A DNA stretch of 63,640 nt, the filler included, from Folioceros fuciformis (lineage: Eukaryota), in assembly GCA_049999805.1 (NCBI GenBank). It is 4 parts of 4 records of this genome, joined end to end, with 100 filler letters (N's around TTAATTAATTAA, not from the genome) between each part and the next. Parts side by side here need not be neighbours in the genome. Positions count along the whole stretch, not along the records: positions 1 to 27,217 come from JBNGIO010005368.1; 3 more parts are not named here. One strand, written 5' to 3'. Shown here piece by piece: positions 1-27,217 of the stretch. The notes under the pieces were generated by a model that had not been told where the DNA came from, searched no databases, and saw only the letters and a list, made by a program, of their open reading frames with translations. Position 1 is the stretch's first letter. Every line of letters starts with the position of its first letter. A program made the position numbers and the translations under genes.

Positions 1-530
1 GGTGTTGGAAGACAAGAGGGTACAGCTTGTCAAAGTTCACACTAGTCAGAACCTTGCAGATGTTCTTATCAAGGGGCTCTCTACGGAGCAATTCGCACAA
101 GCTCGGACACTCATGGGCATGAGGTAGACCACTCTCCTATGAAGGTAAATTGGCCTGTAAGTGGGAGGTTGTAGGGTTATTAAAGCCCAATGTGCTTAGA
201 CTAATGTGTTTAGTCTAATATTAGTGTCTAGTTAAGTATCATTAGTTTAGATTAGCTTAAGCTAATATGTAGGAAGCTTCTTGCGCAGCTTCCTGTGCGC
301 TTCTTGTGAAGCTTCCTGTGCGCTTCCTGTGCGCTTCTTGTGAAGCTTCCTGTGCGCTTCTTGTGAAGCTTCCTGTGCGCTTCTTGTGAAGCTTCCTGTG
401 CGCTTCTTGTGAAGCTTCCTTGGGAGCTCTTCTAAAGGGTATAAATACCCCCTTGAGCTCCCTTGCTATTGAGACTGTGTGAGAGTGTGACCTCTCTTTC
501 TCCTCTTCTCCTTGCCTCCTCCTTCACCAT
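1..530 (+). mobile_element. 3' end of Ty1/Copia LTR retrotransposon (RNase H tail, PPT, 3' LTR)
   Basis: Frame 2..127 reads VLEDKRVQLVKVHTSQNLADVLIKGLSTEQFAQARTLMGMR* (Copia ADxxTK-type tail). Purine tract AAGTGGGAGG is followed by TGTAGGG at 170, and TATA-like GGGTATAAATACCC lies at ~437. Confidence 0.8.
275..421. repeat. Tandem repeat (~23 bp, GCTTCTTGTGAAGCTTCCTGTGC) inside LTR
   Basis: Unit repeated about 6 times, directly visible. Confidence 0.9.
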
Positions 531-539
531 GTGGCTCCT

Positions 540-2655
540 CTAGCGATCCTTCACCTTTGACACCTTGAAGATGAGTTTGATGGAGGCTCCCATCATGGCC
601 AGGCTCGACTTTGCCAAGCCATTTGTGTTGCACACCAATTGGAGCATCTTGGGCCTTGGTGTTGTCTTAGCCCAGCAAGATGAGGACGGATAGGAGAGAG
701 TGGTAGCATATGCCTCACGCAGCAACAATAGGGCAAAAGCCAACTACAGCAGCTACAAGGGGGAGTGCTTAGTGGCTGTGTAGGTAGTTTGTCATTTTAG
801 GCCCTACTTGTATGGCAAGCCCTTACATTGGTAATTGATCATTAGCTCCTCAAATGGTTGATGACCAACACCAAGTTGAGTGGCAAGCTTGCACGGTGGG
901 TCATGATCTTGTAGGACTACGAGTTTCAAGTAGTCCACCGACCTGGGATCACGCACCAGAATGCTGACACTCTCTCCCGAAATCCTCGTGCTAGTTGTGA
1001 GGATATTACAGAGGCTAGGTTGGATGCTAATGAGAGTAAAGTGCAGCACCCATCAGTCTCAGTGATGGTGGTCTTAACATGCTTGGGTGACAATGCTGAG
1101 TCTGGGGCAATCCCGAGTATGGTGGAGCTCCAGCAAACCAAGAGGCAACTGTCACCCCTGGACACCTATGTTGGGGACAAGCGGCCTAAGGACATTCGGG
1201 AGGACCCTGATAGTCTCTTGTTCATATAGACAGGACAATTGAATCCTACCATGGACGCAGTGGAACAAGAGCGAAGTGAGGCAATGGGCAGCTCTTCACT
1301 ACTGGCGAGATGGTTATCTCCTTCAGAAGCTGCCCAATGGGTTGGAGCGCATTGTCCCACCTCCGGCTGATTGTGAGCGATTGATTTGCCGAGTGCACGA
1401 TGACATGGGCCATTTCGGGGTCAAGCGTACTTATAACTTGCTTCTACCACATTTCCACTGGCATGGGATGTATGCCCAAGTCAAGCAATAGGTGGCTTGT
1501 TGCCAGGAGTGTGACAGGGTTAAGACATCCTTCACCATTTAGAACCTGTAGCTGCACCCCTTGCCGATCATGGGAGTGTTTTTCAAGTGGTCTTGTGATT
1601 TGCTAGGTGAACTACCCAAGACACCACACGGGAATGTGTACATCCTCGTCATGATGGAGCATGTTTCCAAATGGGTAGAAGTGGTGGCTCTGCCAGATAA
1701 GAGTTCTAGAAGCACAGCTCAAGCTTTCCTCCAAAATGTATTGAGCTGCTTCAAGAGCTGTGGCGAGTGGCTGACGGATTAGGGGACTGAATTCAGAGGT
1801 GAATTCCATGACTTGCTGGATGCAGCACTCATTGACCATCGCAGGACCAGTAGGGACCACCCACAAGTTGATGGCCTTATTGAACGCATGGTTCAAACCA
1901 TCAAGAAGGGTTTGAGGAAGCTTTGCCTTCAAATGCCAAAAATAGAGTGGGATTTGGCGCTCCCCTACATTGCCATGGGCTACCACATGAGTCGCCATGC
2001 CTCATTGGCCCATTTTACTCCCTATTTCTTGCTGTTTGGGAGGGATCTTGTGCCACCCAATCCCATTGCTAAGCAGCTCTATGAGGTGGTGGACTTGGAT
2101 GATCCTGCAACTTGGGCAAGGGTCATGGGTCAACGTGCGGCACTGTTTCGGCAAGCCATGCCAATGGCCATGGCTAACCTAAGAATTGCCCAACATCGGG
2201 ACACCCTGAGGTATGCCCACACACGTAGTGGTAGCTTCCGGCCCAAGCTCAAGAAGTTCCTAGTTGAAGATTTCGTTTATTTGTAGAGGCAAGCGGGGGA
2301 CGCTCTTGACACCACCACGAGCCGGCATGTGCTACGCATCTAGGCAGTCAAGGACAATGGTGTGCTAGTTTTACAAGGCTCAAATGGACGTACGACCAGG
2401 GAGCACATGAAGAATTGCGCACCATGCCATCTACCCAACCTGGATCCCACCATTGTTACCAGCAATTGGGTGCCCTTAGTCAACTATCCATGCTAGGTCT
2501 GCAGGAGGGTCGATGACCCCGAGCTGATGTTGCTATGCGACTCCTGCAACGGTGGATATCACCTGTTTTGCTTGCAACCCACTTTGGCTGAGGTGCCAGG
2601 GCAGCTGTGGCATTGTCCTTCATATGTTGCTCCTCCTGCAACCTCAGCGGTTTGA
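540..2655 (+). mobile_element. Degenerate Ty3/Gypsy pol (RNase H, integrase, C-terminal PHD finger)
   Basis: KPFVLHTNWSILGLGVVL..ERVVAYASR (RNase H), HDDMGHFG and KWVEVVALP..GLIERMVQTIK..TPYFLLFGR (integrase). Many in-frame stops. A G-rich PPT lies at 2675-2687. Confidence 0.9.
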
Positions 2656-2689
2656 CACACAAGCTTCACCAGTTGGGGGGGGGGAGGCC

Positions 2690-3530
2690 GTAGGTGCTCC
2701 ATCAACTCTAACTTGCTCCCATGAGCATGACTCTCTTTCTTTTTGATGGAGTTGTTCTTGAACTACAAGACTGCTAGGACAAGGCATATTCGGGATTGTT
2801 CTTTCCAAGACTCCCCGAATCTTGCTAACTTGCTGCTTTTCACGACAGCTGACAGGAAGCTGCTAGGGAGGACGGGATAGGTGACATGTTCATTTTGCAA
2901 TCAAGATTGCCGAGACTCCTGAGACTACTTCCATTACTATGCTCGAGCACAAGAAGGAAGGTAAGGCAAGTTCACATTTATAGCTTTCAATTTGTCCCTT
3001 AGCACAATATGGATAATAGCTATTATTCCCTTTTATTTCATTAATTTGGGAACGTAGTTATTACAAGTAATAGACATATTCAAGTAGCTAGAAAAACGCT
3101 GGAACCCAGCAAGTGTGAACACGCTGGAAAAACCCTAGGCAAGCACTAACACCAGGAGGCAAGGGGCAAGGAAGTTAGTCTTTGAAGTTGCACCTGGAGA
3201 TTGCCATAGCTAGAGGAGAAAGGCCTTGTACTCATGTGTCATGAATACAAAGTTGGTTTTCCGTGTGCCCCTCGGATTGGTTCGAAGGTGTGACTGACGA
3301 ACTCCCAGCCAGTGCGCATATCCTAAGCCCAATTGCTTACATTGCAACTTTCATGATTCCCTCTCATCGTAGAGGAAAACACTTCGGGGAAGCTGTAGGT
3401 GCTCCATCAGCCCTAAGTTGCTCCCATGAGCATGACTCACTTTCTTTTTGATGGAGTTGTTCTTGCATTGCAAGACTGCTAGGACAAGGCATATTCGGAC
3501 TGTCCTTTCCAGGACTCCCCGAATCTTGCT
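2690..3530 (+). repeat. Pair of ~137 bp LTR-like direct repeats (2690-2826 and 3394-3530)
   Basis: GTAGGTGCTCCATC...CTCCCCGAATCTTGCT occurs twice, each copy preceded by a purine-rich PPT-like tract. Confidence 0.8.
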
Positions 3531-5881: not shown

Positions 5882-7640
5882 AGAGCACCTAGAATTGAAT
5901 ATTAATTAATTCTAGGGCACTAAGTAGTTCCTTTCATTTAGTTATTTAAGTAGTTAGTTGTTATATTAGTTACAACTACTTATTGGTTATAACCACTTAC
6001 AATTACAACCACCTTGCCTATATAAAGGCATGTACTTTATATTATGCAATGCAACAAGCTTTTATACAAGTGTGTGTACATGATTTTCTTCATGGTATCA
6101 TAACTTTGGTTCTAGATTCTCAAGCATATTGTTTGCCATACATTGAGACATCAATCCTTCTATGCATTTTCTGATCTAGATCATTCATATGAAGATTATT
6201 CTCCAAGGAGGCTTTTTATTTGACAGCAATTTCATTATGCTTTATTTCATGCATATATAATGTACCATTGGTGCATTTTTTCTTTGGTCTATGTACGATG
6301 GATTTCTTAAATCTTAATAGATAAGGGAATATAAGGAGATCCCAGGCTGCAAGCAATAAACGAGAAACAATCAAACACCATCAATCCTAAGCACATCAGA
6401 GATGAAGTTGAAGGAGATTCTAGGATTATTAGCAACTACACTGGAGCTATTATAATCAAATAAAAAAATCAAGGACAATTGATCAAGCTTGCCAAAAGAG
6501 ATCTACTTTCTTGTTTTAGTTATTCAAAAGTATAATCAATTACACTTGCACTCCAACATCTTCCCATTACACTTGCTAGTCTTAGTGCTTCCACTAACAC
6601 AAATTTCTTATAGCTAGTAGAATCCATCAAGTTATATACAAAACTAAATCATAAAGCCCTAATTCAGCAATTATCATTTCTACTTCTTGGTATCAATCGT
6701 TTAAATAAACGTATTGATTTAGAAAACATAATTTCTTATAGTTCTATGCAAATTCATCATTTACTTGCAGATTCTAATTTTGATGAAGATTTTTATATCA
6801 ACCCACTTCCTTGAATGATCTTCTCCAAAAATTCAGGCGCGCAACGTAATTGTGTATAAAGCCATCTGCTATGTCTATTGCTTCAAATGATGGTGGTGAT
6901 CACATTAATCCTCATCTGGTCAATCCTTCATCACCTATCAATCAAGATAAGGAATCATATCCAACAATTATCAATAATTATAGAGATTTTGATATGTGGC
7001 ACCTTAGAATGCGTGTGGTTCTATGCAATTGTGATCTATGAGACATCACCAATGGAAGTCTTACGCGCCCTGACATCACCAACGAAAGTCTTACGTGCCC
7101 CAACATCACCAATGNNNNNNNNNNNNNNNNNNNNNNNNNNNNNNNNNNNNNNNNNNNNNNNNNNNNNNNNNNNNNNNNNNNNNNNNNNNNNNNNNNNNNN
7201 NNNNNNNNNNNNNNCCCTGACATCACCAACGAAAGTCTTACGTGCCCCAACATCACCAATGGAAGTCTTACGCGCCCCGACATCACCAACGAAAGTCTTA
7301 CGTGCCCCGACATCACCAATGGAAGTCCCAAGTCACGAGTGCCCCCAATTGGGGCACTCGTGAAGCAAAAGGTTGCTGGGATTCTAAAGGCAAACAAGCA
7401 CAAGACACATTGATTAGTGAGCTTTCTCAACATATGGTTTCACAAATATATGAGGCAAAATCTTCAAAGGATATGTGGAACCAACTTGTTCAACTATATT
7501 CATCTAAAGATGTCATGAGCTTGATTACAGCCAATAATAACTTCCACAACCCGAGAAGGAATCATATACTATTGAACATCGTATCAACGCTTTCTTCATG
7601 GCAAGATCTCAAGTGCATTTGGTCACAAAATGTGGAGTGA
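5882..7640 (+). mobile_element. 5' part of Copia element (LTR, PBS, leader, gag remnant)
   Basis: LTR ends CA at 6092. PBS-like TGGTATCATAAC at 6093. Gag-like FDMWHLRMRVVL and IYEAKSSKDMWNQLVQLY. Confidence 0.75.
7043..7330. repeat. 30-bp tandem repeat within Copia gag (spans a gap)
   Basis: ACATCACCAA(T/C)G(G/A)AAGTCTTACG(C/T)GCCC units on both sides of the N gap. Confidence 0.85.
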
Positions 7641-8350
7641 CCTACCACCAATGTGTCACCACCAAAGTGTCACAAAGAGGCCCATATTAATCCTCTTATT
7701 GTTGCAGTCCTAGGATTCGCTTCCAAAGAAATGTGATCTTGTGCCAAAACAAACCTGATCCTACTTACCAACCCCTTACTCAACCTGACAATAGCTACGA
7801 CAATTAGATCTAACTTCCTAACTTTATTCCTATTGCATGCAAAAGCTACCCTAGCAGCTGAAAAAGAAACCCCGTCTCCCAGCTCTAAGTCCTCAACTTC
7901 AACCTCTCAATTTGCAACACAACAGCTTTCCCCACCTGCAACCCTAGGGTAGAGATGTGAGGTTTTAGCACCGGATAGCCTCTTGACTCCCAGCCCTCCA
8001 ACCTTCACCTCGAAAACCTTACCCAAGGACATCAAGGCACCTCTCAACCACCATACAAAAAGGGTCAACAATTGTGGATGTGGCCACACAAATCTTGTGC
8101 CGTGCCTCTTAGAGGCAAGGGATAAGGCACAAGGTGCACACTCACACCAAATCAACATCCCAATCCGGCAGCCTACAGATAAGGAACAAGGGGGATCACA
8201 CCAAAGACTACCCCTTCCTAAATGAAGGGGCTGGCCCCTTATATTATCTTGGCCAAGAACTACATCACTACCCACCAAGGTTAGCATCAGTTCACACGCT
8301 CAAAAAATCTCCCCTAATTCCAGCCTATGAGAAACTGACATGTGGACTCT

Positions 8351-8485
8351 TGGAACCCATTACTAGCTTCCCCTTTTGGAACTCATTACTAGCTTCCCCT
8401 TTTGGAACTCATTACTAGCTTCCCCTTNNNNNNNNNNACTCATTACTAGCTTCCCCTTTTGGAACTCATTACTAGCTTCCCCTTA
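8351..8485. repeat. ~26-bp tandem repeat (CATTACTAGCTTCCCCTTTTGGAACT)
   Basis: About 5 copies visible, with a 10-N gap inside. Confidence 0.85.
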
Positions 8486-8649
8486 ACTAGTTTAGGACCA
8501 CTTCCCTTGCAATTTACTCCACCTTCCCCTGTGATAATCATGTACAACTGCATCGCATAAGTTTAGCAACATTCCAATGCCACTGCCTCTTGTCGACCCA
8601 TAGCCCTCTAATATGACAGCCTGGTCCTCTGACAAGTGTTCACCGACCA

Positions 8650-8748
8650 CCAGCGGCTTGTTCTCCATCAGTGCTGCTCACCCCACGCATGCATAACCCA
8701 GCGGCTTGTTCTCCATCAGTGCTGCTCACCCCACGCATGCATAACCCA
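8650..8748. repeat. 48-bp tandem duplication
   Basis: CCAGCGGCTTGTTCTCCATCAGTGCTGCTCACCCCACGCATGCATAAC twice. Confidence 0.9.
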
Positions 8749-9525
8749 ACACAGTCACCAGCAATTTCCCTGCCATGTGTAAGGTACGGTATGCACCAAC
8801 TCAAGGAGGTAGGTGACAAAGCCATATTCTGGCCTCTCCACGACTATCCTATTGTGCTTGTCAAACACAAACAGGAAGACGTGGAGCAGTCTGTATCAGT
8901 CCCAAAACCAAGGCATGCCAAGAAAATTTGACAGGCACTCTGGCCCTCACAAGCGGCCCCTGTCCATCCCTCAGCTTCAAAGCTGCCTTCATTGCATGTC
9001 GACTGGTGGCCACCCTTCCCTTCAATTCTTAGGTTTTGGTGCCGCGTTGCACCTTACATGGCTCCCCAACCCCAGAAGGCTCCCCAGCCCCGAACCATGT
9101 TGCAGACCGCCACGACCTCATCAACCCGCAGCTCAAGAGCCGAAATTTGCACATTCTCCCACTTGTCCGCAAACCCCTTGAAATGGAAATTGATCTCAAG
9201 ACTGGCTACAGGCTGACAGAGCACTCGTCCAGTTTCTTTGACCTTCTCATCAGGGTTCAAGCCAGGGTGCGGCAATTCTATACCAGTAATCCACACCTTT
9301 GGAGACCGTCCGGGACGTTTAGCAAGAGCCTTTGGAGAGGAATGCGCCACCAGCTTCCCATTACTCTGGGAGGTATGCAAATCGGCTCCTGTGCCGTACA
9401 GCTTAGCCAACAGCACATCTAATGATGTAATGACAGCCTTGGCACACTCCATCACCACGAACTTGACATCATCAACCCCTAAACCCTGAGCAGCAGCATC
9501 AAGCACTGTCCTGGCAAGCGCTACA

Positions 9526-9945
9526 TCATCTTGGCCTATTCAGTGCCAAGCCGGCCAAGGAACATGGATTGTCCCCGCTCCAGTGCACCACCTGGCAATC
9601 CCCCCGGAAACCATAGCTTCGCACGAGGTAGGAGCTCAACGGCCTCGCTACCGCATGCAGATGAGCCAGATACTCGAGCTTGTCACTCAGCCCCGGTGCG
9701 GTGGCGAGCAACGCCTCCTCAGACCACTCCCGCTCATGCACGTCCATGAGGTTCATCCTAGCCGCGTCGCTGTGGTCAATTCCAGTGTACTACCCCCCGT
9801 AGCACGGACGCCATGAAGGAGCTCACCAGCGAGATCCGCTCCATGGAAGTGTACACCTCCGGCTGCGTCTACCACAACTTTCGTAGTTGCGGGTCAGTGA
9901 AACGCTCGTGCACGTAGGGGCCGGTGAGGGACGCCACTGCCTGGC
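9526..9945 (-). pseudogene. Captured xylulose kinase fragment (FGGY family)
   Basis: HERFTDPQLRKLW*TQPEVYTSMERISLVSSFMAS..GIDHSDAARMNLMD..WSEEALLATAPGL..VVHWSGDNPCSLAGL matches plant xylulokinase. One stop and one frameshift; no intron visible. Confidence 0.88.
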
Positions 9946-10594
9946 TCCTCCAAGGGCCTACTCCAGCTCTCGGCATTGGTCTCCCGTGCTGCTCTCCACC
10001 CGGACTGGGAAGTCGGGGGTTGCCAGTCGTCCTCGCAGCTGATCCGCGATCGGGGTCCCCGGAGCCAGGTCCCGCAGCTTCGCCCCCGCTCAAACTGTCC
10101 CCGACACTCCTACTGCTGCACTCACTGTCCGAGCCGCCGCCACCGGTACTGCAGTTGCTGCTGCTCATAGCGCTCTCACTTGCGACCTTCCTGTCCCGCT
10201 CCGCCGTCATGTGCCGCCGCTTGCTCATCCGCAGCCGATCCCGGCTCCGGCCATGGTGATGCGGGTCCCCGCCCTCCAACAACGAGGAAGGCCACACCAT
10301 CTCTTCCCGTCCCTTCAGCTGTCCTTCCCACCTTGCTTTAGCTCCCAATCCACCACAAATATGCAGAACAAATTCCTCCCAGCCTCTCCACCCAAACGTG
10401 GTCGCTGCTGCAGTGTGCCAAGCAAGCAACAGCCCCGAGTTCCGCTCCCTCCAAGCACAGCTGCTCCACCTTCCGCTCCCATGCCTATGTAGGTCTGCTC
10501 TCCACTGCATACTCCAGGAACGTGGCCAGCCCCACAATCGCCACAGTTCCGGAACTTCGCACCCATAAGCTGCCCACATGTGCTAGATTCAAAG

Positions 10595-10665
10595 AACACC
10601 CGCTTCTTGCAACACAGTGCATGACATTGTTGTAGGTGACCACGTCAGGCCGATGCCCCCCGGCA
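10595..10665 (-). pseudogene. Captured P-type PPR motif fragment
   Basis: GGHRPDVVTYNNVMHCVARSG resembles the PPR consensus G..PDVVTYN.LI....K.G. Confidence 0.65.
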
Positions 10666-10707
10666 GCTGTGGCCGCGGCGGCCATAGCGTGAAGGTCGGG
10701 TCCAGGT

Positions 10708-10878
10708 GCCGCTTAATGACCTACATCCACTCCTCCACCATCCCCAGGCTCCTCCGCAGCACGAAGAAAAATTGCCCCGTAAACAGCCGCTTCCATAGCT
10801 TGCACATCCCCCTAAGCTTATTGTGGTAAACCCGGGGCGCCCGGATGATGCAGGCGATGGCAAGATCGCCAGGGTCCG
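10708..10878 (-). pseudogene. Captured F-box domain fragment of an F-box/kelch protein
   Basis: PGDLAIACIIRAPRVYHNKLRGMCKLWKRLFTGQFFFVLRRSLGMVEEWM*VIKR matches the plant F-box/kelch pattern PDDLAxACLIRVPRxxHxKLRxVCKRW..LRKSLGMxEEWVYV. Confidence 0.85.
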
Positions 10879-11499
10879 AGCGCAATTCTTGCTCGCGGTC
10901 CAAGAGATCAAGGCCGTTGACGCCCCCTGCTTGGACAACCGCACTGCCGAAGACGGGTGAGGCGACAACAAGCCTCCCATGGCCGCCAAAGACCCCTCGA
11001 CGTTGGGCGGTGCACTACCGCTATGCCAGCACGTCCCAGTCCTTACACCACCCCACCCCGCGTGGACAGAGAATTGTGGAGTGGCCCCCTCCGCCCCCAG
11101 GATCATCCTCCCCGGACCCTCGTTCGCCATTCCCATTCTCCCGCTTCATCCACTTCGACGCCAAGCACAGCCGCAGTAGATCAGCAGGTAGGCATTCCAT
11201 CCTGCATGCACACCGTCCTGGCTCGCATCGCAACACTGACTCGTATCCACCACAAGCTCCATTTGCCCTGCACACATCGATCCTGAATGCCACATAACAG
11301 CGTTTGAGCCGAGCTCACTACCACTCTGGGTTCCATTTTGTAGGCAACCCACAACACGATTCAGATGCTTCCGACCTTCCCACCACTCTTGCCATGTCTT
11401 CCAGTACGGACTGTCCTAGCAGTAAGGAGCTCCACCTCCCGGCTTTTTGGTGCGCCCTCGTTGCTCTCTCGTCCAGCGACCGGGAGCTCTTGGCACAAG

Positions 11500-11659
11500 A
11501 GCTGTAGCCCCGCCTTCTCGGATGACACCCAACGTCCTTCCCAAGTCCCGTCAAAAGGCTCGTAGAATGCCGGCCCCACCTCAGCCACCCCTCCGCAGCC
11601 TTAAGCAAGAGCAGCAGCAGCCGTAGCTGGTGCAACCACATCCCGCTCCTCCGAGCCAT
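11500..11659 (-). pseudogene. Captured calnexin N-terminal fragment
   Basis: Signal-peptide-like MARRSGMWLHQLRLLLLLL, then after a frameshift FYEPFDGTWEGRWVSSEK, like calnexin FYESFDEsFEGRWIVSEK. Confidence 0.75.
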
Positions 11660-11931
11660 GCCAGGCGACATCTATCCTTTCCCTTCCAACCCCTCTGCCT
11701 CTGGCCAAGGCCTCTAAACGCACAACTAGAAGCTAGCGGGAAGATCACGGCAGCTGGCGGAGAAGAGAGTCAAGACCCGGTCTTACCCCGACCCTAAGGA
11801 ACAACCCGGGTTAGCAAATCGCTGTTTACCTTATGAACACATCCACTACCTATATCCTAACCAACCTAGTCTAATTTCTCAACTACTTTTTCATAGAATT
11901 CAATCAAAACTCAAAAAAAAAAAAAATACTA

Positions 11932-14900
11932 TCATTTTTCTAGGGATCCATTCACCATGTGGACTCCACATATTCCCCTTTTCATTTGTTGGCGTCCCCG
12001 CCAACTTACCAATAGTATTTCTTCACATGCCAATATTTCTACCCTAGTTGGCAAGTTAGGCCCATTGAGGTACTGGGGTTGGATGGATCCATTCCTATAA
12101 ACCTCCAGCACCCTATAAGGCCCCATCCACCTAAGATACAGCTTTCCTGGAAAATGCATGTACCTATTGTTGTATAACAAAGCCAAATCTCCATGAACAA
12201 CATGTTCATGTTTAGACAACTTTTGGTTATGCCATTTCTTCCTCTTCTCTTGGACATCAAGAAAAATAGCTAGGGCCCGTTCCGTGTTCTCATCATGTTG
12301 TACAAAACTTGGTAGCCTCTCCAGTTGACTTTCCTCCACTGGCAACCGGTTGCCCTCTTGCATTCTCAAGGTAGGTATCTCAAATTCAATTTTCATGACA
12401 GGTGAGTGACCATAGGTGAGATAATAAGGGGTTTGTTGGGTGGTGACCTTCTCCGCAATCCTATACGCCCATAGTACTGAATGAAGCTTCCTATCCTAGT
12501 CATGAGCATAAGTAACGGTTAGCTTGCTAAGAATCCTACATAACAACCCATTAGCCTTCTCTGTGAACCCATTGGCCTTGGGATTGTAGGGAGTGGTCTT
12601 CCTATGGCTGATATTGAAGTATTTATTCATGTGCTTGACCACCTCATTGATGAAGTGGGTGCCCCTGTCACTGACCAGCTCCAACAGGCATCCATACCTT
12701 GTGATGATCTACTCAAACAAAAATCTGGCCACCACATTTGCTATGCCTACGGGCAAAGCTTGAGCCTCCACCATGCGAGTGCAATAGTCTGTTGTCACCA
12801 AGATGTGTTGGTTCTGCCTCCCCTTGGTCTTTGGCTGAATTGGCCCCACGAAATCAATTCCCCACTTCTCAAATGGTGCCAATGCTAGGATGGGAACAAG
12901 TGGCCATTGTGTTGTCCTGGTAGGCTTCCCCACCCTTTGGCACGCATCACATCTCTTGATGAACTTCCTAGCATCAGCATCCATTATTGGCCACAAATAC
13001 CTTGCTGCAAGGATTTTTTTGCAGGTCACATGGGCTGCATAATGCTCTTCAACTTCTCCTTCATTTGAGGAGCTGATAACATGCTCCACCTGGTCATGCT
13101 TGACCCACAAACGTCCACTCTATTAACCCCTATGCGATACAACTTGCCCTTGTACTTAACCACCAGCCTAGTGAAATAGAGGAACAGCCGTTGCTGCTAT
13201 CGCAAGAGATCAGCTGGAAACTCCCCCGTGCCCAAGAAATCAGCTACCTCTTGGTAGAACGGCTTACGGAACCCCCTTCTCCCCTTCTCATTCGGCGTTG
13301 CGCCTCCATCTCCTAGTAGCTTAGCATTTGGCTTGGCCCTTTCTTTCCTAGCCAGCTTCGCTGAGAATGCCTCATCTGGGAAGTCATCTTCCTGGTCCCG
13401 ATCCACACTCTCAGTCTTCAGCCTTGATAGGAAATCAGCATTCAAATGCTTGCGCCCTTCTCTTGTTTCCACGGTGAATGTGGATTCTTGTAGATGCGAA
13501 ATCCAGCGGGCTATACATCCCAATAGATTTGCCTTGTTGACAAGATGCTTAAGAGCAAAGTGGTCAACATGGAAGAGGAACTCATATGAGAGGAGATAAT
13601 GACGAAACTTACGACATGAGTAAACCATGATTGTGATGTACTTGCGCTCAACCTCCGTGAGTTGGCATCCAGCATAGTAGATTGGGTAGTCTCTCCTCTT
13701 CTCCTCCCGTTGGCTTAGGATTGTCCCAAAAGAAAATGCAGACACATCCACGTACACATGAAATTTCTTGTCCCAATCTGGCCCCTTGAGAGTTGGTGTT
13801 GTCACAAGGGTGGTCCTCAAGTCCTGAAACATAGCCTCCCTTTCCACCGTCCACTCCCAAGGTTGCTCCTTCCTCAATAGGCCAGTTAAAGGGGCAGCCC
13901 ATCTAGCAGAGTTGGGAACAAAATAGCGGCAATAACCCACCATACCAAGGAAGCCACACAACTCCTTGAGAGTGGTTGGAGCCCTCAAGGCAGCAATCAC
14001 CTTCACCTTATCCGAATCAACCTCAATGGCCCGTGCTGAAACTCTATGGCCTAGCAAGATCCCTCTAGCCATACCAAAATAGCTCTTCTTTGGATGCAAA
14101 CAAATTTGAGCCTCATGACACCTAGCCAAGCATAGCCTTAGGTGCTCCACGTGTTGCTCCATTGTCCCAAATTTGCAGAAGTCATCTATGAACACCTCCA
14201 GGAACCTGTGGAGGAAATCCTTGAAGATATTGTGCATGCTGCACATGAAGGAACCTGGTGCTCATGTCAGCCCAAATGCACTCCTCTTGTAGGCGTATGT
14301 CCCCCAATCCATTGTGAAGGCTATCAACGGCCAGTCGCTCTCCCTTAAGTGAAGCTGGTTGTAACCGGAGTAGCCATCCAAGAAAGAATGCATCATTCGA
14401 CTAGCTAACAAATCCAAAATTTTGTTAATGAATGGCAAAGGGAAGTGGTCCTTCTTGGTAGCCTTGTTTAGCCTCCTCCAATCTTGGCACACTCGAATCT
14501 TATCGGGTTATTTCTTAGATACCACAACAATTGGGGCCACCCACTCCGTGTTCACAACGGGGAAGATGATATTTACCTTCAAGTACAACTCCAGCTGCTC
14601 CTTTACCTTCATGGAGTACTTTGGATTCAGCTTGTACTATGGAATTCGAATAGGGACAGCTCCTGGCTCCAAGTCAATCTTGTGCTCCCCCCACTTCTTA
14701 GGAATTCCCTTCATGTTCGTCACCTCAAAGGCAAACACATCAATGAACTCAGCAAGGAGTTGCTTCATGCCTTCCTCCAACGTGGCATCCAGTCGTTGTG
14801 CAAACTTCAGCACCTTGCCGAGTAGCACCTCTACATCCTTGATCTCATTCGCTTGCACCCACTCATGTTCCACCGGTGCTGAATACTCCAAATCCCTCTT

Positions 14901-17900
14901 CCAGCTCCGAGGGTCTTCCCCCCTCATTCCCCATTCTCTGAATAGGTCCTCAAAGGTGAACCTAGTGACCTCCGGATCATGACAACCAGAACCATCAGTC
15001 CTCAAGTCACGACCCTCTTCAACCAACTACCCTTCCTTCACACTCCCCTCAACACATGGCACCCCCACCTTTGTTTCCCCCTTAGCAACCCCAACAGCTT
15101 GTCTAACAACCTCGATTGCTCCTTCTGCCACCCCAATGGTGCAAACCACGGTGAGCCCAAAACATTCCACCTGGTTGAGAGAATACGGAATGTCCCTCTA
15201 GTAGTTCCCCTCCTCCTCTGATCATGATATGTGTGCAAAGGGGAACTGGTCCTCCTCTTCCCTCTCCTCCAAGTCATATGTGTCCTTCGCAAATGTGAAC
15301 CCCTCCGTCTCCATGGGTGTCTCACCAGAATAAGTATCTTGGTGTGAACCTCCAAAGTTTGGGGTAGTGGTTTGTTTTGGTTGAAAAAGGGTTAATAGTG
15401 GTATGGTATGGTTTGGTTTTCTTTTTCTACCTATTTTCCCTAATTTTCCTTTATTTTCTGGTCATTTTTCCTATTTTTTCTTGTGCTAATTAGGTTAATA
15501 GACCAGTAAATAGTTGGTTTGGTTATTAGAGTGGGTATAGGTTTGGTCCCAGACCTGGGAAGGTTTAGGTCTGGTACCAAACCATAGGGTCGGGAAAGGT
15601 TGAGTCTAGGTCTGGTGATGAGTTTAATATTAATTAAAGATATATAACATTAAATGGTTAAATAATAATGGAATAATATAAATAATAAAATAATAAGAGG
15701 AACCTAGGAACGGGAATATGTGGGGTATGGTATGTCAGAGTCTAACGTCAGGCTGGCTNNNNNNNNNNNNNNNNNNNNNNNNNNNNNNNNNNNNNNNNNN
15801 NNNNNNNNNNNNNNNNNNNNNNNNNNNNNNNNNNNNNNNNNNNNNNNNNNNNNNNNNNNNNNNNNNNNNNNNNNNNNNNNNNNNNNNNNNNNNNNNNNNN
15901 NNNNNNNNNNNNNNNNNNNNNNNNNNNNNNNNNNNNNNNNNNNNNNNNNNNNNNNNNNNNNNNNNNNNNNNNNNNNNNNNNNNNNNNNNNNNNNNNNNNN
16001 NNNNNNNNNNNNNNNNNNNNNNNNNNNNNNNNNNNNNNNNNNNNNNNNNNNNNNNNNNNNNNNNNNNNNNNNNNNNNNNNNNNNNNNNNNNNNNNNNNNN
16101 NNNNNNNNNNNNNNNNNNNNNNNNNNNNNNNNNNNNNNNNNNNNNNNNNNNNNNNNNNGTATTTCTTTTCTTTTTATTTTCCTAATTTCCTCTTTTCTAT
16201 TTTCACCCCTATTTTTTGGATTTAATTCCAGAAATTCCAATTCAACTCTATTTCACCTGCTTTCTTCTCCTCCTAGTTCGGGGCCTATTCTAGCACCCTA
16301 GGGTCAGTCTTCCATGGCCGAAGAACCATTTTGGCTGGAAGCTGATTCCGCTGGATAAGCTACCATTTTCAGGCCAGGTTCCTGCTGCTGATCCCATTGC
16401 TTCTTACCTCCTCTCTATCTTTCCCACTACTCATACTCCTCCCCTAGAGGCTGGATCAGCCACCAAGGGTGAATAGTTGCAGGGGAAGACATTAGTGGGC
16501 GGCCATCCAGCAAGGAAGAGGCGACGTCCGTAGATCTTTGAAGATCAGACATCCTCTGAAGTCTCAGGATAGTCTAAGAGGTGGTAGATCCTTGTGGTGG
16601 TAGGGCCAGCTCATTGGTGGCAGGATGTGCTAGAAGTCTAAATAAGTCGCTGGTGACAGTCGGCTAGGCTAGCGGTCCTATTAAAATAATATTTGTCAAG
16701 TTAAAGAGAGGTGAAGCCAGAGAGAGAGAGGCTCCTATAAGATCAGGTAAGCCTATAGGAGGAGGTAGTCATTTACTTTGGGAGTCAGTCTGTCACTTCG
16801 TGAGCTCTTGGAGGTACTCTCTTCATGAGCTCTTGTGGTCTATCCCTGCTTGGTTTAGGACCTGCAGTGTGTTGCCGGCTGTGCAACGTCTGGTAGGATC
16901 GCAAGCCGCGTGTTGCCGGTTGTACAGTGTCTAGTAGGATCACAAGGTGTAATGACCAGGGTGAAGGGGCTTGCCCCTAGCTCTTGATTGTAAAGGATGT
17001 GTCTTTATCTCGACCTGTCCACTCTTGTTCCCTGTTTTGACAAGTGTTGTAGGCCGGCCATGTTTCATGGCATCTGGTAAGGTTGTGGGGAGGAGATATT
17101 CGAGAGGGGAGTGCGTTCCCTTCTTTCTTTTCTTTGGGGTTAGTCTAGTGACTCTTGCCGGGTAGGAGGAGTCAATAGGGAAGTGTAGAAGGTAGTGGTG
17201 TCGTTGTTAGTTGCTGGTGCTAGTGCTGGAGCGAAAGAGTGAGTGAAGTGAGTGAGGGAAGTCACAGATTTGAGAGGTTAGGGTCGTTGTAGTGACTGGA
17301 GTGAGTTTGTGGGCACCAAGAGAGGTGCAGCTGACCGCTGGATAGTGAGGCCTGTCCTACGCCTGATTGGAGTTGGAGGGGAGCCCTTGAATCCATCATC
17401 AAGTCGATTGAGTCCGACCCTCCTTCCACAGCAGCAAGGAACCCCTTCGCTCCTTCGTGGGAACGGAACCCAATGTCTCAACGACAGTGGGATAAGTGTG
17501 GCCACTAAAGGTGGACCCGTCGGCAATTAGCGCCCGGGGTTTTGCCTCCACACTTGGCTCCAACTCAAGCAAATCTAGCCCTCCTTTGTCTTGGGGTCCC
17601 ATTTTGGTGGCTTGAAGGCCACCTCCTTCCTCCCCCATCACAACTTGCACCTTGAACCATACAACTAGGTCCTACCAAGCAAGATATCATACCCCGGTGC
17701 CTTGGGCTGAATAACCACATAAGGTGTCTAGGAGGTAGGGGATGGTCCCTATGATTGTGGTCACTCCTGTTAGGTCCCCTATGAGTTGTATCTTAGACAT
17801 GTCAGCCAGCCTCAACACCTTGGTTGTATGTTCTATCTCCAACCCAAGCTTCCTAACTGTGTCTTCTGTCATGATGTTCACGCTTGAGTTAGTGTCCAGG

Positions 17901-18535
17901 GGAACCCTCTTGATCACACAACCAGCAATCTCTTCCTGCAACTCAGTTGGCCCTTGATCTACCATGGACACCATGCTAACCACAGGAGCCAACTTCCTTT
18001 GCCCTGACTTAGGAAGCCGCTTCTTCTTCTTGGGTTGAGCTTCTTGCAAGGCCTTCTGAAGTTGCTGCCTATACTTGGGGTTGTCCTTCAAGAGTTGGCC
18101 AAATGTGATGGCAAATTGTTGATCCATGATGGACTTAGCCAGGTTGAATGGCACTCCATTTGTCCCCTCCTTCTTCTGAGCAACCTTGGTTGTGGATCTA
18201 TCTGCCTCAGTTGCCCCCTTAGGTGGTCCGGTTGCAGTCACGGGCCCTGCCACCTCAGTTGCCCTAGCCAACTCTTCATGGATCATGTCCATGACCTCCC
18301 CACGTACATCTGGTGGAAACTCCTGGTTCCCCTCCTTCCTATCCTTTGCTAGAGCTACTTCCCCTCCACTCCTTGGTGTTTCCCTCTTGGAGGTCCTCCT
18401 TCCACAACCCCCGTTCTCATGGCTTGACCATTCCAAGTTTGAAGTGCTTCCCTCTTCCTCCTCCAATCCTGCAATGGATTCAGCTCCCTTCCTCCTTTTC
18501 TTGGCACTCCGTTGCTTTCCTCTCCTCCTTCCACT
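11932..18535 (-). mobile_element. Degenerate Ty3/Gypsy (non-chromovirus-like) gag-pol, interrupted by a solo LTR
   Basis: Protease-like VPLDTNSSVNIM (17687-18565), RT DWRRLNKATKKDHFPLPFI/LDGYSGYNQ/VFIDDF, RNase H FHVYVDVS, integrase WGIDFVGP/SDRGTHF/RWMGPY. Confidence 0.92.
15343..17552 (+). mobile_element. Solo LTR (~2.2 kb including a gap) with 5-bp TSD CTTGG
   Basis: Starts TGTGAACC at 15343 and ends CCTCCACA at 17552. CTTGG lies at 15338-15342 and 17553-17557. It splits the Gypsy polyprotein. Confidence 0.85.
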
Positions 18536-18552
18536 TGTTAAGAATAAATAAC

Positions 18553-18675
18553 TGTGAACCTCCAAAGTTTGGGGTAGTGGGTTGTTTTGGTTGAAAAAGG
18601 GTTAATAGTGGTATGGTTTGGTTTCCTTTTTCTACTTATTTTCCCTAATTTTCCTTGATTTTCCCTAATTTTCTC
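18553..18675 (+). mobile_element. Truncated copy of the same LTR end
   Basis: TGTGAACCTCCAAAGTTTGGGGTAGTGG...GGTTGAAAAAGGGTTAATAGTGG, as at 15343. Confidence 0.85.
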
Positions 18676-18699
18676 CAGTCTCCCCTCTTCTTATCAAAC

Positions 18700-21600
18700 C
18701 TTTATCTCTAGGCAGAATGCTACTCTTCAGTCATCCTATTTGGCTGTAGCAGCTGGTAATCCCTCCACCATTAGCTTTGATGATGTGATGGGCACTCTCC
18801 TACAAGAGGAGTAGAGCTGTCACGAGTCTGGGCAGAATTTTAAAATCAGAGGCAAAAAGGTGTTAGTTGCAGTCAAAGGCAAGACATTTGGGAAAGGAAA
18901 GGAAAAATGGAAGAAGCAATATAGCTTCCCTTTGCCTTCCACCCCTATACCCAAATGCCAAGGGATATGCAATTGGTGTCTAATTCCTGGACACTAGGAG
19001 AGAGAATGCTGCAAGAAAAAGGCTAGTGAGCCTGGTAAGGAACCAAAGTTTGAAGTCCATTATGCAACCAAGGACATGAAGACAATGGTGAAAACCTCAG
19101 CTTCAGCTCTTACAGTGTGTCTAACTGACTCTGGAGAGCCTTCTGCTCAATGGTTTGTCGACTCTAGCACTAGCACACATATCTGCAACAATTTAGAATT
19201 GTTCACCTCATTCAGGAGTCAACTGACTCCACAATCAATTTATGTGGGAGATTCCAGAACGGTAGCAGTCAAAGGTGAGGGTAGAGTGACAATACCTCTT
19301 CCTAGTGGTGCAACTCTGCAGTTAGAAAATGTGCTATTTGTACCCTCCATGACTAAGAACTTGATATCTGTTCATGCTATCACCTGTAGTCAGTCATATG
19401 GCTTTTGATTTGAAGCCAACAACTGCTACATCTACAGTCTAAAGGATACCATTATTGTTTTAGCCAAAGCTATAGTCACTGGAGATCTGTATCAGTTGAT
19501 TACCTCTAATGGTGAAATAAGTCAAACTTTCTTAGTTACCTTCAAGTCTCAGGCCAGCTTATGGCAGGCTAAGCTTAATCATGTAAATAAGGCCAAGCTA
19601 GATTTGATGTCAACTTCAAACTGCTATAGGGAAAAGCTTCCCTCATGCTTCAAGCCCCTGCCTGTATGTGGTGCTTGTGTCTTGTCCAAACAGAGGGAGT
19701 TACCCTTCAGGAATAAGCAGGTATTCAGGGCTACAGAAGTGTTAGGCCTAATACATGCCGATGTAGCTGGAAAAATACAAGTGAAGTCACTTGGTGGGGC
19801 AGAGTATTACCTCACACTTACTGATGATTATTCACGATATACTTGGACTTATCCTTTGAAATACAAGAGTGATGCCTTTGACCATATTGAGTCATGGATT
19901 CAAATGGTTCAGCGACAAACTGACAGCCTTGTTAAGTGTTTTCAAATAGATAATGGAGGCAAGATTGTCGGGTGTAGTTATGATGCACTATTCGAAAAGA
20001 GTGGCATCATCCAACAGCTTTGAGTACCCTATACACATCAACAAAATGGTGTGGCAAAGAGGAAAAACTAGACCTTGATGAGCATGACTCGTAGTATGCT
20101 ATCTTGGGCAGCTTTACCAAAGAGTTATTGGGCAGAGGCAATTACCACAGCAACATACATCCTTAATAGGCTGTTAACTTCTGGCCTTCGGGATAAGACT
20201 CCATTTGAAGCATTTTGGGGCAGGAAGTCTAGCCTATTACATCTTCATGTCTTTGGTTCCTATGACTTCGTCTACATACCTGCTGAAAAAAGGAAGAAGT
20301 TGGATGATAGGTCAGCCTTTTTTTTACTTCCTTGGCTATTCTGAGGAATCAAAGGCATACAAATTGTTTAATCCCAAATCTCACAAGGTGGTGCTTGCTC
20401 GAAGTGTTACCTTTATAGAGCTGTTTAAACCTAGGACTAGGCCCATGTTTGGGCCAGACATAAGTCCCCTACAAGATCTCCTTGAGATTCAATATGGCGG
20501 TGATACCTAAGCGTCTCCTTTACATGCACATGTCTCTTTCCCAGACTTAGAGGATGGATGTACGGATGAGCATGTGCTACTCTATACTGATATTGATGAT
20601 GTCCCACATGTTGATAACGGATTACCTCAGTTGGCTGAGGATGATGCACTCAGTCTTCATGACTCTGATCATTCCTCACAGCTAGGTGAAGGGACTGGTG
20701 ATGTGGAAGAACCTCCAGAACCTCAACTTAAGGCAGAGGCTCCTACATAGTCTGTGCAATCATGATACCCTGCAAGGGAATGAAGAACACGAGAAAGTTG
20801 GTCAAAATTCCCTTATCAATCTATAGACTTTCGGACCTTAGCTCATTTAGTAGACTTTACTGTACCTGAAGTTCGACCACACCCTCTGACTTATCAAGAG
20901 GCCCTGAATGGGCCTGACGATGCTCATTGACAATTGAGCATCAATGATGAGTACAATAGCCTCATTATGAACAAGACATGGGAGTTGGCAGACTTACCTC
21001 CTGGTCCTAAACCAATTACCTATAAGTGGCTGTTTGAAACAAAACTCAAGTTAGATGGCACAGTAGCCCGATATAAATCTCATCTTGTTGCTCGAGGTTT
21101 TAGTCAAGTCCCTGGGTTAGACTACAATGAGACATTCTCACCAGTTGTTAAACCACCCTCCATTAGAATTCTGCTGGCGATAGCTGCCGAGTTTGACTTG
21201 GAAGTTCACCAGATGGATGTGTGCACTGTGTGTCACGGTGAGCTTGAAGAGGAAATCTACATGCAACAACCAGAAGGCTTTGTTAGTAGAGAGTTCCCTG
21301 CAAAGGTCTGTAAATTCCTTAAGACCATTTACAGCCTCAAGCAAAGCCCTCGAGCATGGTATGAATGGATTGCAAATTACCTCCATACAGTTGGCTTTGT
21401 CTAGTCCCCAGCAGACACCAATGTTTGGTATTTTCCAGAAGGGGTCTACTTTGTGATCCTAGCCCTGTATGTTAATGATGTTATCCTCCTCATCAACAGC
21501 CCTAGTATGTTAGAGAAAGCAAAACAGATGCTAAGAGTAGAGTTTGAGATAGCAGATCAAGGAGACTTACAGTTCTGCTTGGGTATCCAAATCTTGCAAG

Positions 21601-21730
21601 ACCGCACCCACAAAACAGTGGTTGTCCATCAGACTAAATACCTGAAGGAGATTCTTAAGCGCTTTGGTCTTGACTCTGCCCGTCTTGTTGCCTCCCCTTT
21701 TGCTATGAAAGAAAAGCTTATAGGTGCTAT
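18700..21730 (+). mobile_element. Degenerate Copia gag-pol (5'- and 3'-truncated)
   Basis: Zinc knuckle CNWC..GH..REC, protease WFVDSSTSTHIC, integrase IHADVAG/TDDYSRYTW, RT NKTWELADLP/LKQSPRAW/LALYVND. Confidence 0.92.
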
Positions 21731-24700
21731 GTACCTGAAACAATACATACATATATTGTATAGTTAAGGTCCAATCATTAGGTTAAGTAGGTTTTAATGG
21801 ACATGACCTAATACGGCTGGTATTATGGCTGTAACCGTTCACGATGCGGTGACACATAAGATGCATTGCCGCCTAATAGAACACAATCTTACAATCCAAA
21901 ACTTTCCATGGTATCAGAGCAATGGATACCTTGACCTGCTCGTTTTACAAGCGCGCTGAATACAAGAACCCAATCTCTATTTCTGAGTTTGGCATATTCT
22001 TGCACTTGATCCAAGTTTGTTGGCCAAGTGGCGTGCCTGCAGAGGTTTGGGAGATGGTACTCGCGTGCTATTTCCTCAAGCCGCAGGTATGAGTGCAGCA
22101 CAGCTGCAGGCGTTCTTGTCTCAGCATGCTAAGCTCAAGGAGAAGGGAGCGCCCGAATAGACGTGCTAAGAGGCTGTCTAACCTGGCAGACTATCTTGCT
22201 CGATCTGAGAGAGAATATCAAGAAAAGTTAGCACTTGGAAATAGGTGGCATCAAGTTTGGATTAGATGGATATAATTGGAGCCATGTAGATATCTCAAAT
22301 GTCTTCCAATAGCTGAAAAACATGTCTTCCCCCTCTAAGTCCACAATCATTTTTGTTTCACCTAAAACACCTGATGATGTCCACACATCAATGTTTAGTA
22401 AAATATAGGATCTGTTTAAACAGCAACCAATTAGTCCATGCATTCATTACCTCAATGAGTACGCTCTCAGCGTTGTCCACAAGCTTCACACAGAGTACTG
22501 TTTCTCAGATTAAGTAAGCATCCAAATGTCACTAGAGGTAGAAATTCAGTCTCACCTGCCTCACTATTGCAAGGCACACTTTCACCCTATTTCTTGAGTC
22601 TTCCCTTTAGGCCATAAAAATGTCACGGCAACAACCACCAACGCCGATTGCCTTGGCAAAGGAGGATAAATTTGATGGAGAAAACTTCAATCTCTAGAAG
22701 TTTCGCATGGAGGAGCTACTCAAATCCCGGAACCTGTGGGAGTATGTTGGAGCAACCGTGATAAGGCCTCAACCACCAGCCACAGCACCAGCATATGAGA
22801 TAGCAGCCTGAAAGGCCGCAAATCAGCAGGCAAGAAGCACATTAACAATGAGTGTAAAGAGCTCTCACATAGCCACCTTCATGGTCTCCATCACGTCAGC
22901 TGCAGAATTATTGCAGCAATTACTTGAGGTTTATGTTGCCTTTGACCTGATGTTGAAGACCCATTCATTGAAGTCGTTTGTTGAACTTCGAATGTTCGAA
23001 AGGGACATAGTGGCTGAGTTTATGCTCAAGTGGAGGAGCTGGCAAACCAAGTTTCTCTCTCTTGGCTTTCAAATCAAGGAGGAAGTCATGGCAGTAATTC
23101 TACTTTCACAGCTGCCGGAAAGTTGGACTACTATTGTCCAGACCCTGCAAAATGTGGCAGCTATCACTGTTAATCGAGTGATTTCAACAATGCTCACAGA
23201 AGAAAATTGCAGGAAAATGGCTTCATCATATGGAGCTGAAGGTGACAAGGCTCTTTTCGTTAACAAACTTGGAAGAGGGCGTAGTAGAGGCAGACCGTTC
23301 AACAGAGGACGAGGTCGTGGTCGAGGCACATTCTTTCGACCACAGCCATTTACTGGAAGTAAACCAAAGCCACCTTGTGGCTACTGTGGAATTCCTAATC
23401 ATACATGGAAAGTCTACAGGAAAAGACTCGCAAATGAGTCATGTGGCAGTCATTCAGGTGGTAACCTAGCTGTCACAATGAAGAAATATTCCAAAGCTTT
23501 CACAGCCTCTGTACAAGATGAAGTGAGAGCAGACTCTCATGAAGGTCCTACCTCTGCCCTAGTAGTGACCTGCTATGCATCCAAGTCCGAGCATGCTTGG
23601 TATATAGACTCTGGAGCCTCACAGCACATGACTCCGCATCATTCCTCCTTCACAAACTTGCAGCCAACATAAGGAGAGCGGTTTGTATGCTTGGGTGACA
23701 ACTCCACACACAAAATTGAAGGCCAAGGGATTATATAGCTTAACCTTCAACCTGACCAGCACCTGACAATACCAGATGTGATTTGCGTACCAAGTCTCGC
23801 AAAGAACTTGGTATCAGTACGGAAAATTGATGAGTTAGGATGCTACATATGCTTTGGCGCCTACAAGTGTGTGGTAGAAACACCTGAAGGCAAGCTCATG
23901 GCCACATGAGGACTTCGATCTAATGACTTGTATCATCTGGATGTCAAGCATGACCATGCCTATGCAGGTAATCACTCTGCCCATATGGCAAAACCTTCTC
24001 TCACATACCTGTGGCACCTGAGACTTGGACACTTGAATTTCCAAAAGTTAGTAAGAATGCATCAAAAGAAGCTGGTCAATGGACTGAAGTTAGATACCCT
24101 GATTGACTTTGGAGTGTGCAAAGCATGTGTGCTAGGCAAGCACCATAAGACACCATTCCCCATTGAACTTGCCGAAAGAGCAACCAGAGTGCTTGGGTTA
24201 GTAGATAGTGACATATGCGGACCTCTACCTACATCTATTGGAGGCAAGCTATATTTTATTAGCTTTATTGATGACTACTCTAGATTTACCGTAGTTTATT
24301 GCATGAGACAAAAGTCATCTACTCTTACCTGCTTCAAGGAGTACAAGGCATGGGTTGAGACCCAAATCGAGGAGAAATTGAAAGCACTTTGTTCAGACAA
24401 CGGTGGTGAGTATGTCTCAGGAGAGTTTTAGGCCTTTTGTGGTGAACATGGCATTGTGAGGCAATTGACCAATGCTCGCACACCTCAGTAGAATGGAGTA
24501 GCTGAAAGGAAAAACAAGGCACTTGAAACATCAGCATCTAGTATGTTAAGCTATGCAAAGCTTGCAAAATGCTACTGGGTAGAGGCAGTGGCGTATGCTA
24601 CCTTCATACAAAACCAAATTGAACATGCTTCTGTCCAGGACAAGACAACTTTTGAGTACTGGGCTGGATCAAAGCCCAACATATCACACATGCGGGTCTT

Positions 24701-27155: not shown

Positions 27156-27217
27156 TGTGAACCTCCAAAGTTTGGGGTAGTAGTTTGTTTTGGTTGAAAA
27201 AGGGTTAATAGTGGTAT
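27156..27217 (+). mobile_element. Third copy of the TGTGAACCTCC LTR end, cut by the scaffold end
   Basis: Near-identical to 15343 and 18553. Confidence 0.85.

Follow-up and report, generated by a model that had tools for sequence, protein, structure and literature searches.

The window analysed here is a stretch of 63,640 nucleotides (nt; filler included) of Folioceros fuciformis (GenBank assembly GCA_049999805.1), composed of four parts joined end to end, of which the first (positions 1-27217) comes from record JBNGIO010005368.1. The region of interest is a GC-rich tract that directly follows the pol region of a degenerate Ty3/Gypsy retrotransposon. This tract is a single-copy mosaic of pieces of at least three unrelated host genes, situated behind pol in a decayed Ty3/Gypsy element of the non-chromodomain type. 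The three proven donors are genes for a xylulokinase, an F-box/kelch protein and a GRAS-domain protein; the pieces between the three named fragments probably stem from further donors. The window as a whole is land-plant-like eukaryotic DNA rich in transposable elements (TEs), with plant-type rRNA and remnants of Copia and Gypsy elements. Its PLS-type PPR-E+ genes and the best matches of the xylulokinase piece, which are to moss proteins, make a non-seed land plant the probable source.

The Gypsy pol, at 11932-15026 on the minus strand, has decayed into six or more open reading frames (ORFs). Its Pfam domains, all on the minus strand, are RVT_1 (14262-14507 and 13200-14261), RT_RNaseH_2, Integrase_H2C2 (12712-13119) and rve (12496-12708), and the order reverse transcriptase (RT), RNase H, integrase on one strand is that of Ty3/Gypsy elements. 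No chromodomain was found by Pfam in the last pol ORF. On the 5' side of the inserted block described below a protease-like ORF is present at 17687-18601. Pol terminates at a stop codon at 11932 and the tract follows directly. Immediately after the stop codon lies a run of 15 T (T15; 11918-11932, minus strand, A15 on the plus strand), which is the boundary between the multi-copy pol and the single-copy tract. It is followed by an AT-rich spacer of 107 nt (11811-11917, minus strand, GC 0.29), situated just upstream of the point where coverage by the probable RNA run X1 (see below) begins; it is either promoter-like or what is left of the Gypsy 3' untranslated region (UTR). The mosaic begins about 120 nt past the pol stop, and the GC-rich tract extends from the spacer to about 8925 (8925-11810), with a GC content of 0.53-0.63 versus 0.475 in pol.

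The reading frames of the tract were examined by a six-frame read-through translation of 7650-11931, with X at stops, followed by a Pfam scan. Matches were confined to the minus strand, where FGGY_N and GRAS were recognised in two of the three frames; none of the three plus frames gave a match. The xylulokinase fragment (9532-10083, minus strand), identified by a protein search, tblastn and Pfam FGGY_N, covers about amino acids (aa) 112-296 of about 560. An 87-aa ORF within this region (9526-9789) yielded 15 matches with E<=1e-3 among 177 candidates, the best (4e-27) to moss xylulokinases with 64-67% identity, and PF00370 was present in 14 of the 15 matched proteins. When three of the matched proteins were used as tblastn queries, residues 112-296 aligned collinearly at 10083-9532 (E 6e-35 to 5e-36). 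The piece amounts to about 184 codons, distributed over at least three frames with at least two frameshifts and two in-frame stops, and no intron is visible in the tblastn alignment of these 552 nt of coding sequence (CDS).

The N-terminal piece of an F-box/kelch gene lies at 10661-11014 (minus strand), with the F-box at 10724-10882. It gave no match in the word-index search, PDB or Pfam and was detected only by a full phmmer scan of its 97-aa ORF (10721-11014) against 1.84 billion representatives, which returned 39 matches with E<=1e-3 (best 6e-14), all of them covering ORF residues 45-97 approximately. Pfam was run on 15 of the 39 matches and placed an F-box at the matched site in all 15, with Kelch also present in 13. 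Conversely, tblastn with all 39 proteins aligned 38 of them to the tract, all to minus-strand sequence inside 10484-11014; most often the alignment covered 10873-10661 and continued across a stop codon. Regarding the GRAS-domain fragment (9093-9332, minus strand; Pfam model positions 130-208), the ORF at 9054-9539 matched with a Pfam E value of 4.3e-13, above the cutoff, and the read-through frame with 1.4e-11. In PDB, six DELLA chains match this ORF as well (E 4e-4 to 1e-3), and a second short GRAS piece may lie upstream of it, reaching to about 9455.

Two further candidates were not confirmed. At 11496-11671 (minus strand) ORFs form a signal-peptide-like piece, with an ATG, a leucine-rich start and, in another frame, the motif FYEPFDGTWEGRWVSSEK. 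Plant calnexins begin with a similar motif. Pfam, PDB, the Atlas and the 5.8-billion search gave no match that would support a calnexin N-terminus, the only PDB hits being eight unrelated ones with E>=0.55. The 'PPR motif' at 10599-10658 (minus strand), 17 residues long, scored below the cutoff with both PPR_2 (E 0.035) and PPR_1 (E 0.042); this signal, present in one of 26 ORFs and gone in the read-through frames, is at chance level. An earlier note on this DNA, made from the sequence alone, had described a GC-rich tract of about 3 kb directly 3' of a minus-strand Gypsy integrase and carrying pieces of at least four captured host genes, and the tract itself was found as described. Of the four genes, xylulokinase and F-box/kelch stood, the former longer than the claimed 140 codons or so, whereas calnexin and PPR did not; GRAS, which had been missed, has been added, giving three that are proven. 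Their common orientation with pol was borne out, all proven fragments being on the minus strand.

Three public sequencing runs under one species label contain the tract and are referred to as X1, X2 and X3. X2 and X3 are DNA runs from one sample, and X1 and X2 come from different studies. The depth over the tract was 8-15 in X2 and 11-35 in X3, compared with 8.5-9.3 and 13.5-20.2, respectively, over the single-copy flank 7215-7784, whereas the pol bins reached 30-290 in X2 and 13-716 in X3. The pol family is thus multi-copy, with about 5-30 copies of pol at >=90% identity, and the cargo single-copy, with no other copy at >=90% identity in these runs; the excess depth over the cargo is accounted for by parent genes. 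The internal junctions are covered by contigs without a single difference from the window: all three runs have one over 9441-9830, where xylulokinase meets GRAS, X2 has one over 9801-11074 and X1 one over 10228-11284. Since exact junction contigs occur in both X1 and X2, which are from different studies, the mosaic is not an assembly chimera.

Several other contigs resemble the cargo without being identical to it. One X1 contig of 6048 nt and depth 121 is 92% identical to 9532-9830, the two being set apart by 23 differences and a 1-nt gap; beyond 9532 its minus-strand translation reads GDLAVSLGTS, the expected continuation of xylulokinase, and judged by this continuation the contig is the expressed xylulokinase parent. 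Its 1-nt difference at 9792 recurs in an X2 DNA contig. Near the F-box piece there is a parent-like contig of depth 70 that has one inserted nucleotide and lacks 57 nt relative to the window; it occurs in the probable RNA run and in DNA. Parent-like contigs raise the X1 depth over 8925-9494, 10065-10349 and 10920-11489, which suggests that there are more donors than the three named.

The Gypsy element and the mosaic are together nested in a Copia element. The left half of a Copia gag (7221-7640, plus strand) matches Retrotran_gag_2 model positions 27-91 (E 5e-10), followed by 28 further residues, and the right half (18665-19216, plus strand) matches model positions 128-164 and aligns to aa 96-284 of an intact Copia gag at 22812 (E 3e-9). 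Copia protease, integrase (Pol_BBD, rve) and RT follow the right half, the split Copia comprising 7221-7640 and 18665-22000. The block 7650-18663 (about 11 kb), comprising Gypsy pol and mosaic, is inserted within this one Copia gag; because it sits between the two halves of a single gene, the mosaic has been imported, together with TE material or into it, and does not represent local host genes. A 14-nt near-repeat (7644-7673) is found at the left gag junction, and no target-site duplication was recognised around the nested block. The 5' part of the split Copia also contains a tandem array of 30/60-nt units (7042-7327), which is interrupted by a 100-N gap.

Two segments separate the mosaic from the left Copia gag half. 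The first (8350-8905, minus strand) is a CpG-depleted low-copy repeat (observed/expected ratio, o/e, 0.35) with two tandem arrays, one of at least five 26-nt units with AAAAGGGGAAG and one of two 48-nt units, and a polypurine run within the arrays; its DNA depth is 45-106, and another expressed copy, about 90% identical, was seen in X1. The second (7650-8335, minus strand), which adjoins the Copia gag, is a segment resembling a long terminal repeat (LTR): it starts with TGTCA, ends with GTGACA(CA), carries a TATA-like motif, has a CpG o/e of 0.24, and has related copies with internal deletions in the DNA runs. The CpG o/e of pol is 0.34 and that of the mosaic 0.73-0.81, versus 0.35 and 0.24 in the two segments behind the mosaic. 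By its ends and its CpG depletion only, 7650-8335 is a candidate 3' LTR, and the layout pol, cargo, 3' UTR, 3' LTR would fit the order of the segments.

Run X1, whose type is a guess, was treated as probable RNA because its depth on pol is about zero, its depth on a high-copy repeat is low and its depths on gene contigs are unequal. In particular, 11 of the 12 bins of 11775-15194 had a depth of 0 (the exception being bin 12345-12629 with 10.9), X1 had depths of 18 and 0.5 on a repeat whose depth in the DNA runs climbs to 40,000-71,000, and the parent-gene contigs had depths of 121, 70 and 35. Over the tract and the segments behind it, exact X1 contigs (7244-8379, 8953-9267, 9441-9830, 9813-10257 and 10228-11284) showed an even depth of 25-36, falling to 12.9 in bin 11490-11774 and to 0 in bin 11775-12059. 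One X1 contig (depth 7.9) joins 11281 directly to 11375, with 27 letters on its shorter side, a joint that does not occur in the DNA runs. The skipped segment (11283-11375, minus strand) is a candidate intron of 93 nt with GT..AG borders; once it is removed, the ORFs 11318-11671 and 11021-11314 form one continuous frame of 185 aa. Transcription of the tract, presumably from the minus strand, thus seems not to depend on pol, which is silent; the product would be a long chimeric RNA that is occasionally spliced. This claim rests on one run of guessed type and one short-sided joint.

Concerning the remainder of the window, three spacers of the form N44-TTAATTAATTAA-N44 (27218-27317, 46710-46809 and 62033-62132) are six-frame-stop linkers joining draft contigs. 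As the contigs so joined are separate, features across a linker are not genomic neighbours. All other N runs, of 100, 10 and 400 N, are gaps in scaffolds. The window also has two PLS-class PPR genes, intact, free of introns and with E and E+ motifs, one at 29572-32697 (plus strand, 1042 aa) and one at 56910-60017 (minus strand, 1036 aa); these two PPR-E+ genes are sited on different contigs and share 73-74% DNA identity. An ultra-high-copy repeat occurs at 15343-15758, 18553-18663 and 27156-27217, with a DNA-run depth of 33,000-116,000 versus about 9 for single-copy sequence. On the minus strand its copies have a fixed 3' end, ...TTGGAGGTTCACA, and a different sequence after each copy; it could be a SINE- or LINE-like (short or long interspersed) element or a solo-LTR-like one. 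Two copies of this repeat flank the gag/protease part of the Gypsy element. At 42380-46709 rDNA forms a patchwork in which a Copia RT, truncated at about 42715, passes straight into small-subunit (SSU) rRNA (model positions 615 to about 1060), followed by three telomere-type TTTAGGG repeats (about 43151-43184), large-subunit (LSU) rRNA from about model position 150 to 3401, and rDNA spacer. The joins are abrupt and all on a single strand, without internal transcribed spacers or 5.8S. A lone LSU rRNA fragment of 280 nt (37663-37942), 93% identical to 43622-43902, lies outside any rDNA unit.

The explanation put foremost here, tentatively, is that the host pieces were captured by the Gypsy element during reverse transcription, in the manner of the maize element Bs1. 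Reverse transcriptase would have switched from the element RNA to co-packaged cellular mRNAs and back, and internal cDNA pieces in sense orientation and without introns would be left behind pol, before the 3' end of the element, an arrangement known from Bs1. The cargo is not shared by any sibling copy, so that capture probably took place in one event or very few, without subsequent amplification of the loaded copy. The present locus is a pseudogenised patchwork. The host pieces lie on the strand of the element and after pol, TE-like sequence is located behind the cargo, and the whole block is nested in the Copia gag. For three proven fragments to share the strand of pol by chance the probability is 1/8, and the proven pieces are internal or 5' CDS in which introns are not visible. 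Metagenome homologues of xylulokinase were examined at 8 of 18 loci; the five intron-bearing loci represent three distinct sequences (L014/15, L016 and L017/18), each with at least one intron within residues 114-295, and, being about equally distant from mosses and a green alga, they lend suggestive support only. The failure to find TIRs, Helitron ends, flanking direct repeats or sense-strand poly(A), described below, points the same way. The earlier note had drawn on the same orientation and lack of introns, and had proposed serial RNA-level capture; single-copy cargo without siblings argues against captures spread over several transposition cycles. Its statement that no introns are visible holds for the 552 nt of xylulokinase, while the 93-nt GT..AG segment spliced in one contig may be a retained parental intron. 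The chimeric transcripts it had envisaged are likely, given the coverage in X1.

A more far-reaching version would make the locus a new gene of the Bs1 kind at an early stage in a non-seed land plant, formed when one round of reverse transcription brought fragments of three to six host mRNAs into one Gypsy copy, and since endowed with its own promoter activity and a functional intron. It would encode a 185-aa chimeric protein with a signal-peptide-like start, or give rise to small RNAs acting on the xylulokinase, F-box and GRAS parents. We regard this version as speculative and improbable.

A number of observations weigh against capture by the Gypsy element. When 1-30000 and the whole window were compared with themselves, with word sizes as small as 7, no LTR pair emerged; the LTR-like segment 7650-8335 has no twin in the window, and neither a clear primer-binding site nor a convincing polypurine tract was detected. 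The earlier note had expected a 3' LTR and a polypurine tract near 7630-8700, where the LTR-like segment lies. The set of two LTRs with TG..CA ends, primer-binding site, polypurine tract and target-site duplication that delimits a Ty3/Gypsy element was accordingly not recovered, and only geometry places the cargo inside the element. On its 5' side the block has been rearranged and holds two copies of the ultra-high-copy repeat (ends at 15343 and 18553) and the 400-N gap. The cargo has single-copy depth and no sibling elements; it was not seen in other copies of the element, which would be the sign of a loaded element that transposed. In maize, according to a survey, none of 425 gene-bearing LTR elements contained more than one gene (PMC2774510), which gives a low prior for multi-gene capture by such elements. 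A cDNA origin accounts less well for the 93-nt GT..AG skip, and for X1 coverage that sets in with the 5'-most fragment and is 0 on pol, than does a copy of promoter, exon and intron made at the DNA level. Finally, contigs of all three runs with matches on the right-hand side of 11330 depart from the window there, and among the contigs listed one set ends at 11925 and the next restarts at 11943, with none bridging 11926-11942 (the T15 run); the link between mosaic and pol thus rests on the assembly and one splice-like joint.

These last points could also mean that the mosaic is real and yet not physically joined to the Gypsy pol as drawn, owing to an artefact of assembly or haplotypes. As a draft, the window consists of concatenated contigs with gaps. 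The X2 and X3 contigs that are exact over 11330-11925 and 11330-11670, respectively, continue into 225 and 208 further, divergent letters, and X1 has a loose end of 120 letters at 11330, the first 30 of which occur nowhere in the window; together with the unbridged 11926-11942 this speaks for such an artefact. The departure at 11284-11330 could reflect an indel, haplotypes that differ or misassembly at that place, and an indel in the candidate intron would explain the divergence with the linkage intact. Moreover, 8438-15758 is gap-free in the window, and one X1 contig joins 11281 to 11375 across the very place in doubt. An artefact of this kind is considered to have a low probability.

A more serious competitor, although still rather unlikely, is a patchwork assembled at the DNA level: a double-strand break in the 3' region of the inserted Gypsy element would have been filled with DNA from several templates by synthesis-dependent repair with template switches, and one piece would have brought along the promoter, first exon and intron that now drive the chimeric transcript. 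Such an origin would account for the single-copy state of the tract, its lack of surrounding TE termini, the spliced 93-nt segment and the coverage that begins with the 5'-most fragment and leaves pol at 0, and the rarity of multi-gene cargo in LTR elements (none among the 425 maize elements of PMC2774510) points the same way. The 14-nt near-repeat at the Copia gag junction (7644-7673) and a further abrupt join in the window, that of Copia RT, SSU rRNA, telomere-type repeats and LSU rRNA, are likewise in its favour. On the other hand, it leaves the location of all three proven fragments on the strand of pol to chance and does not predict 552 nt of xylulokinase CDS without a visible intron; it also needs a break within the short stretch between pol and the LTR-like end, and the splicing it explains is seen in a single contig with 27 letters on the shorter side.

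An unrecognised or truncated DNA transposon, either a Helitron or a Pack-type element with terminal inverted repeats (TIRs), could have inserted into the 3' region of the Gypsy element, since multi-gene cargo in one orientation and chimeric spliced transcripts are typical of Helitrons and Pack-MULEs. The earlier note had named ends of this kind, independent of the Gypsy element, as what would count against its reading, and none were found. Neither TIRs nor flanking direct repeats were detected in 6200-12300, where the three imperfect inverted pairs of 17-19 nt are all internal; the TIRs plus target-site duplication of Pack-MULE and Pack-type elements are therefore lacking. Within 7400-12100, on both strands, no GC-rich hairpin with CTRR-T was present at either border, the only stems being two weak, internal ones of 6 bp with one mismatch, and the combination of a 5' TC with a 3' hairpin and CTRR between A and T that marks Helitrons was not observed. 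Considering also that no other genomic copy exists at >=90% identity by run depth, a DNA transposon is very improbable. As for a processed retrocopy made by LINE machinery, the 3' poly(A) and flanking target-site duplication that characterise it were not seen: the sense strand has no A run near 8900-9050, and the sole homopolymer, T15, is at the 5' side.

Should capture by the Gypsy element be correct, the locus would join a rare class, multi-gene LTR cassettes, of which Bs1 is the textbook case; none was recorded among the 425 maize elements of that survey (PMC2774510). Literature searches that were not aimed at non-seed land plants indicate that such captures are little described in these plants, and no claim of a first is made. 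A second transcribed example would help to test exon shuffling by retroelements and the effects of its products on parent genes. If instead the DNA-level alternative is true, the locus illustrates multi-template break repair inside nested transposons.

Filler-DNA patchworks at repaired plant double-strand breaks likewise combine short stretches of several loci into a mosaic that is single-copy and has no TE termini; their pieces are randomly oriented and include copies of non-coding DNA, whereas the proven pieces here are all coding and on one strand. Helitron and Pack-MULE cassettes share with the present locus the multi-gene mosaic, often in one orientation, and chimeric spliced transcripts, but differ in their defining termini, which were searched for and not found here; the xylulokinase piece, moreover, shows no visible intron. 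Captures of single genes by LTR elements are common in surveys of maize, rice and sorghum (PMC2774510, PMC3726574). Maize has 425 gene-bearing LTR elements, 168 of them Gypsy (PMC2774510), and a review gives 1343 transduced sequences for sorghum (PMC13317346). In these captures host fragments reside in the internal region of Gypsy or Copia elements, as they would here if the capture reading is right; the maize elements carry one gene each (PMC2774510), in contrast to the at least three donors of the present tract. The closest parallel is Bs1, a maize LTR retroelement that contains pieces of genes for a plasma-membrane H+-ATPase, a xylan endohydrolase and a beta-1,3-glucanase (PMC13317346). An LTR pair and cargo-bearing siblings, both of them Bs1-like features, were not recovered in the present case: Bs1 has defined LTRs and forms a small family, whereas in the present tract an LTR pair could not be detected, pol has been kept, the cargo exists in one copy and the protein is putative. 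In both loci, nevertheless, fragments of several unrelated host genes lie in sense orientation and none is complete; Bs1 is transcribed, as the present locus appears to be, and a chimeric ORF may have formed (PMC13317346). The tract described here is a probable multi-gene case of the known gene-fragment-carrying LTR elements.

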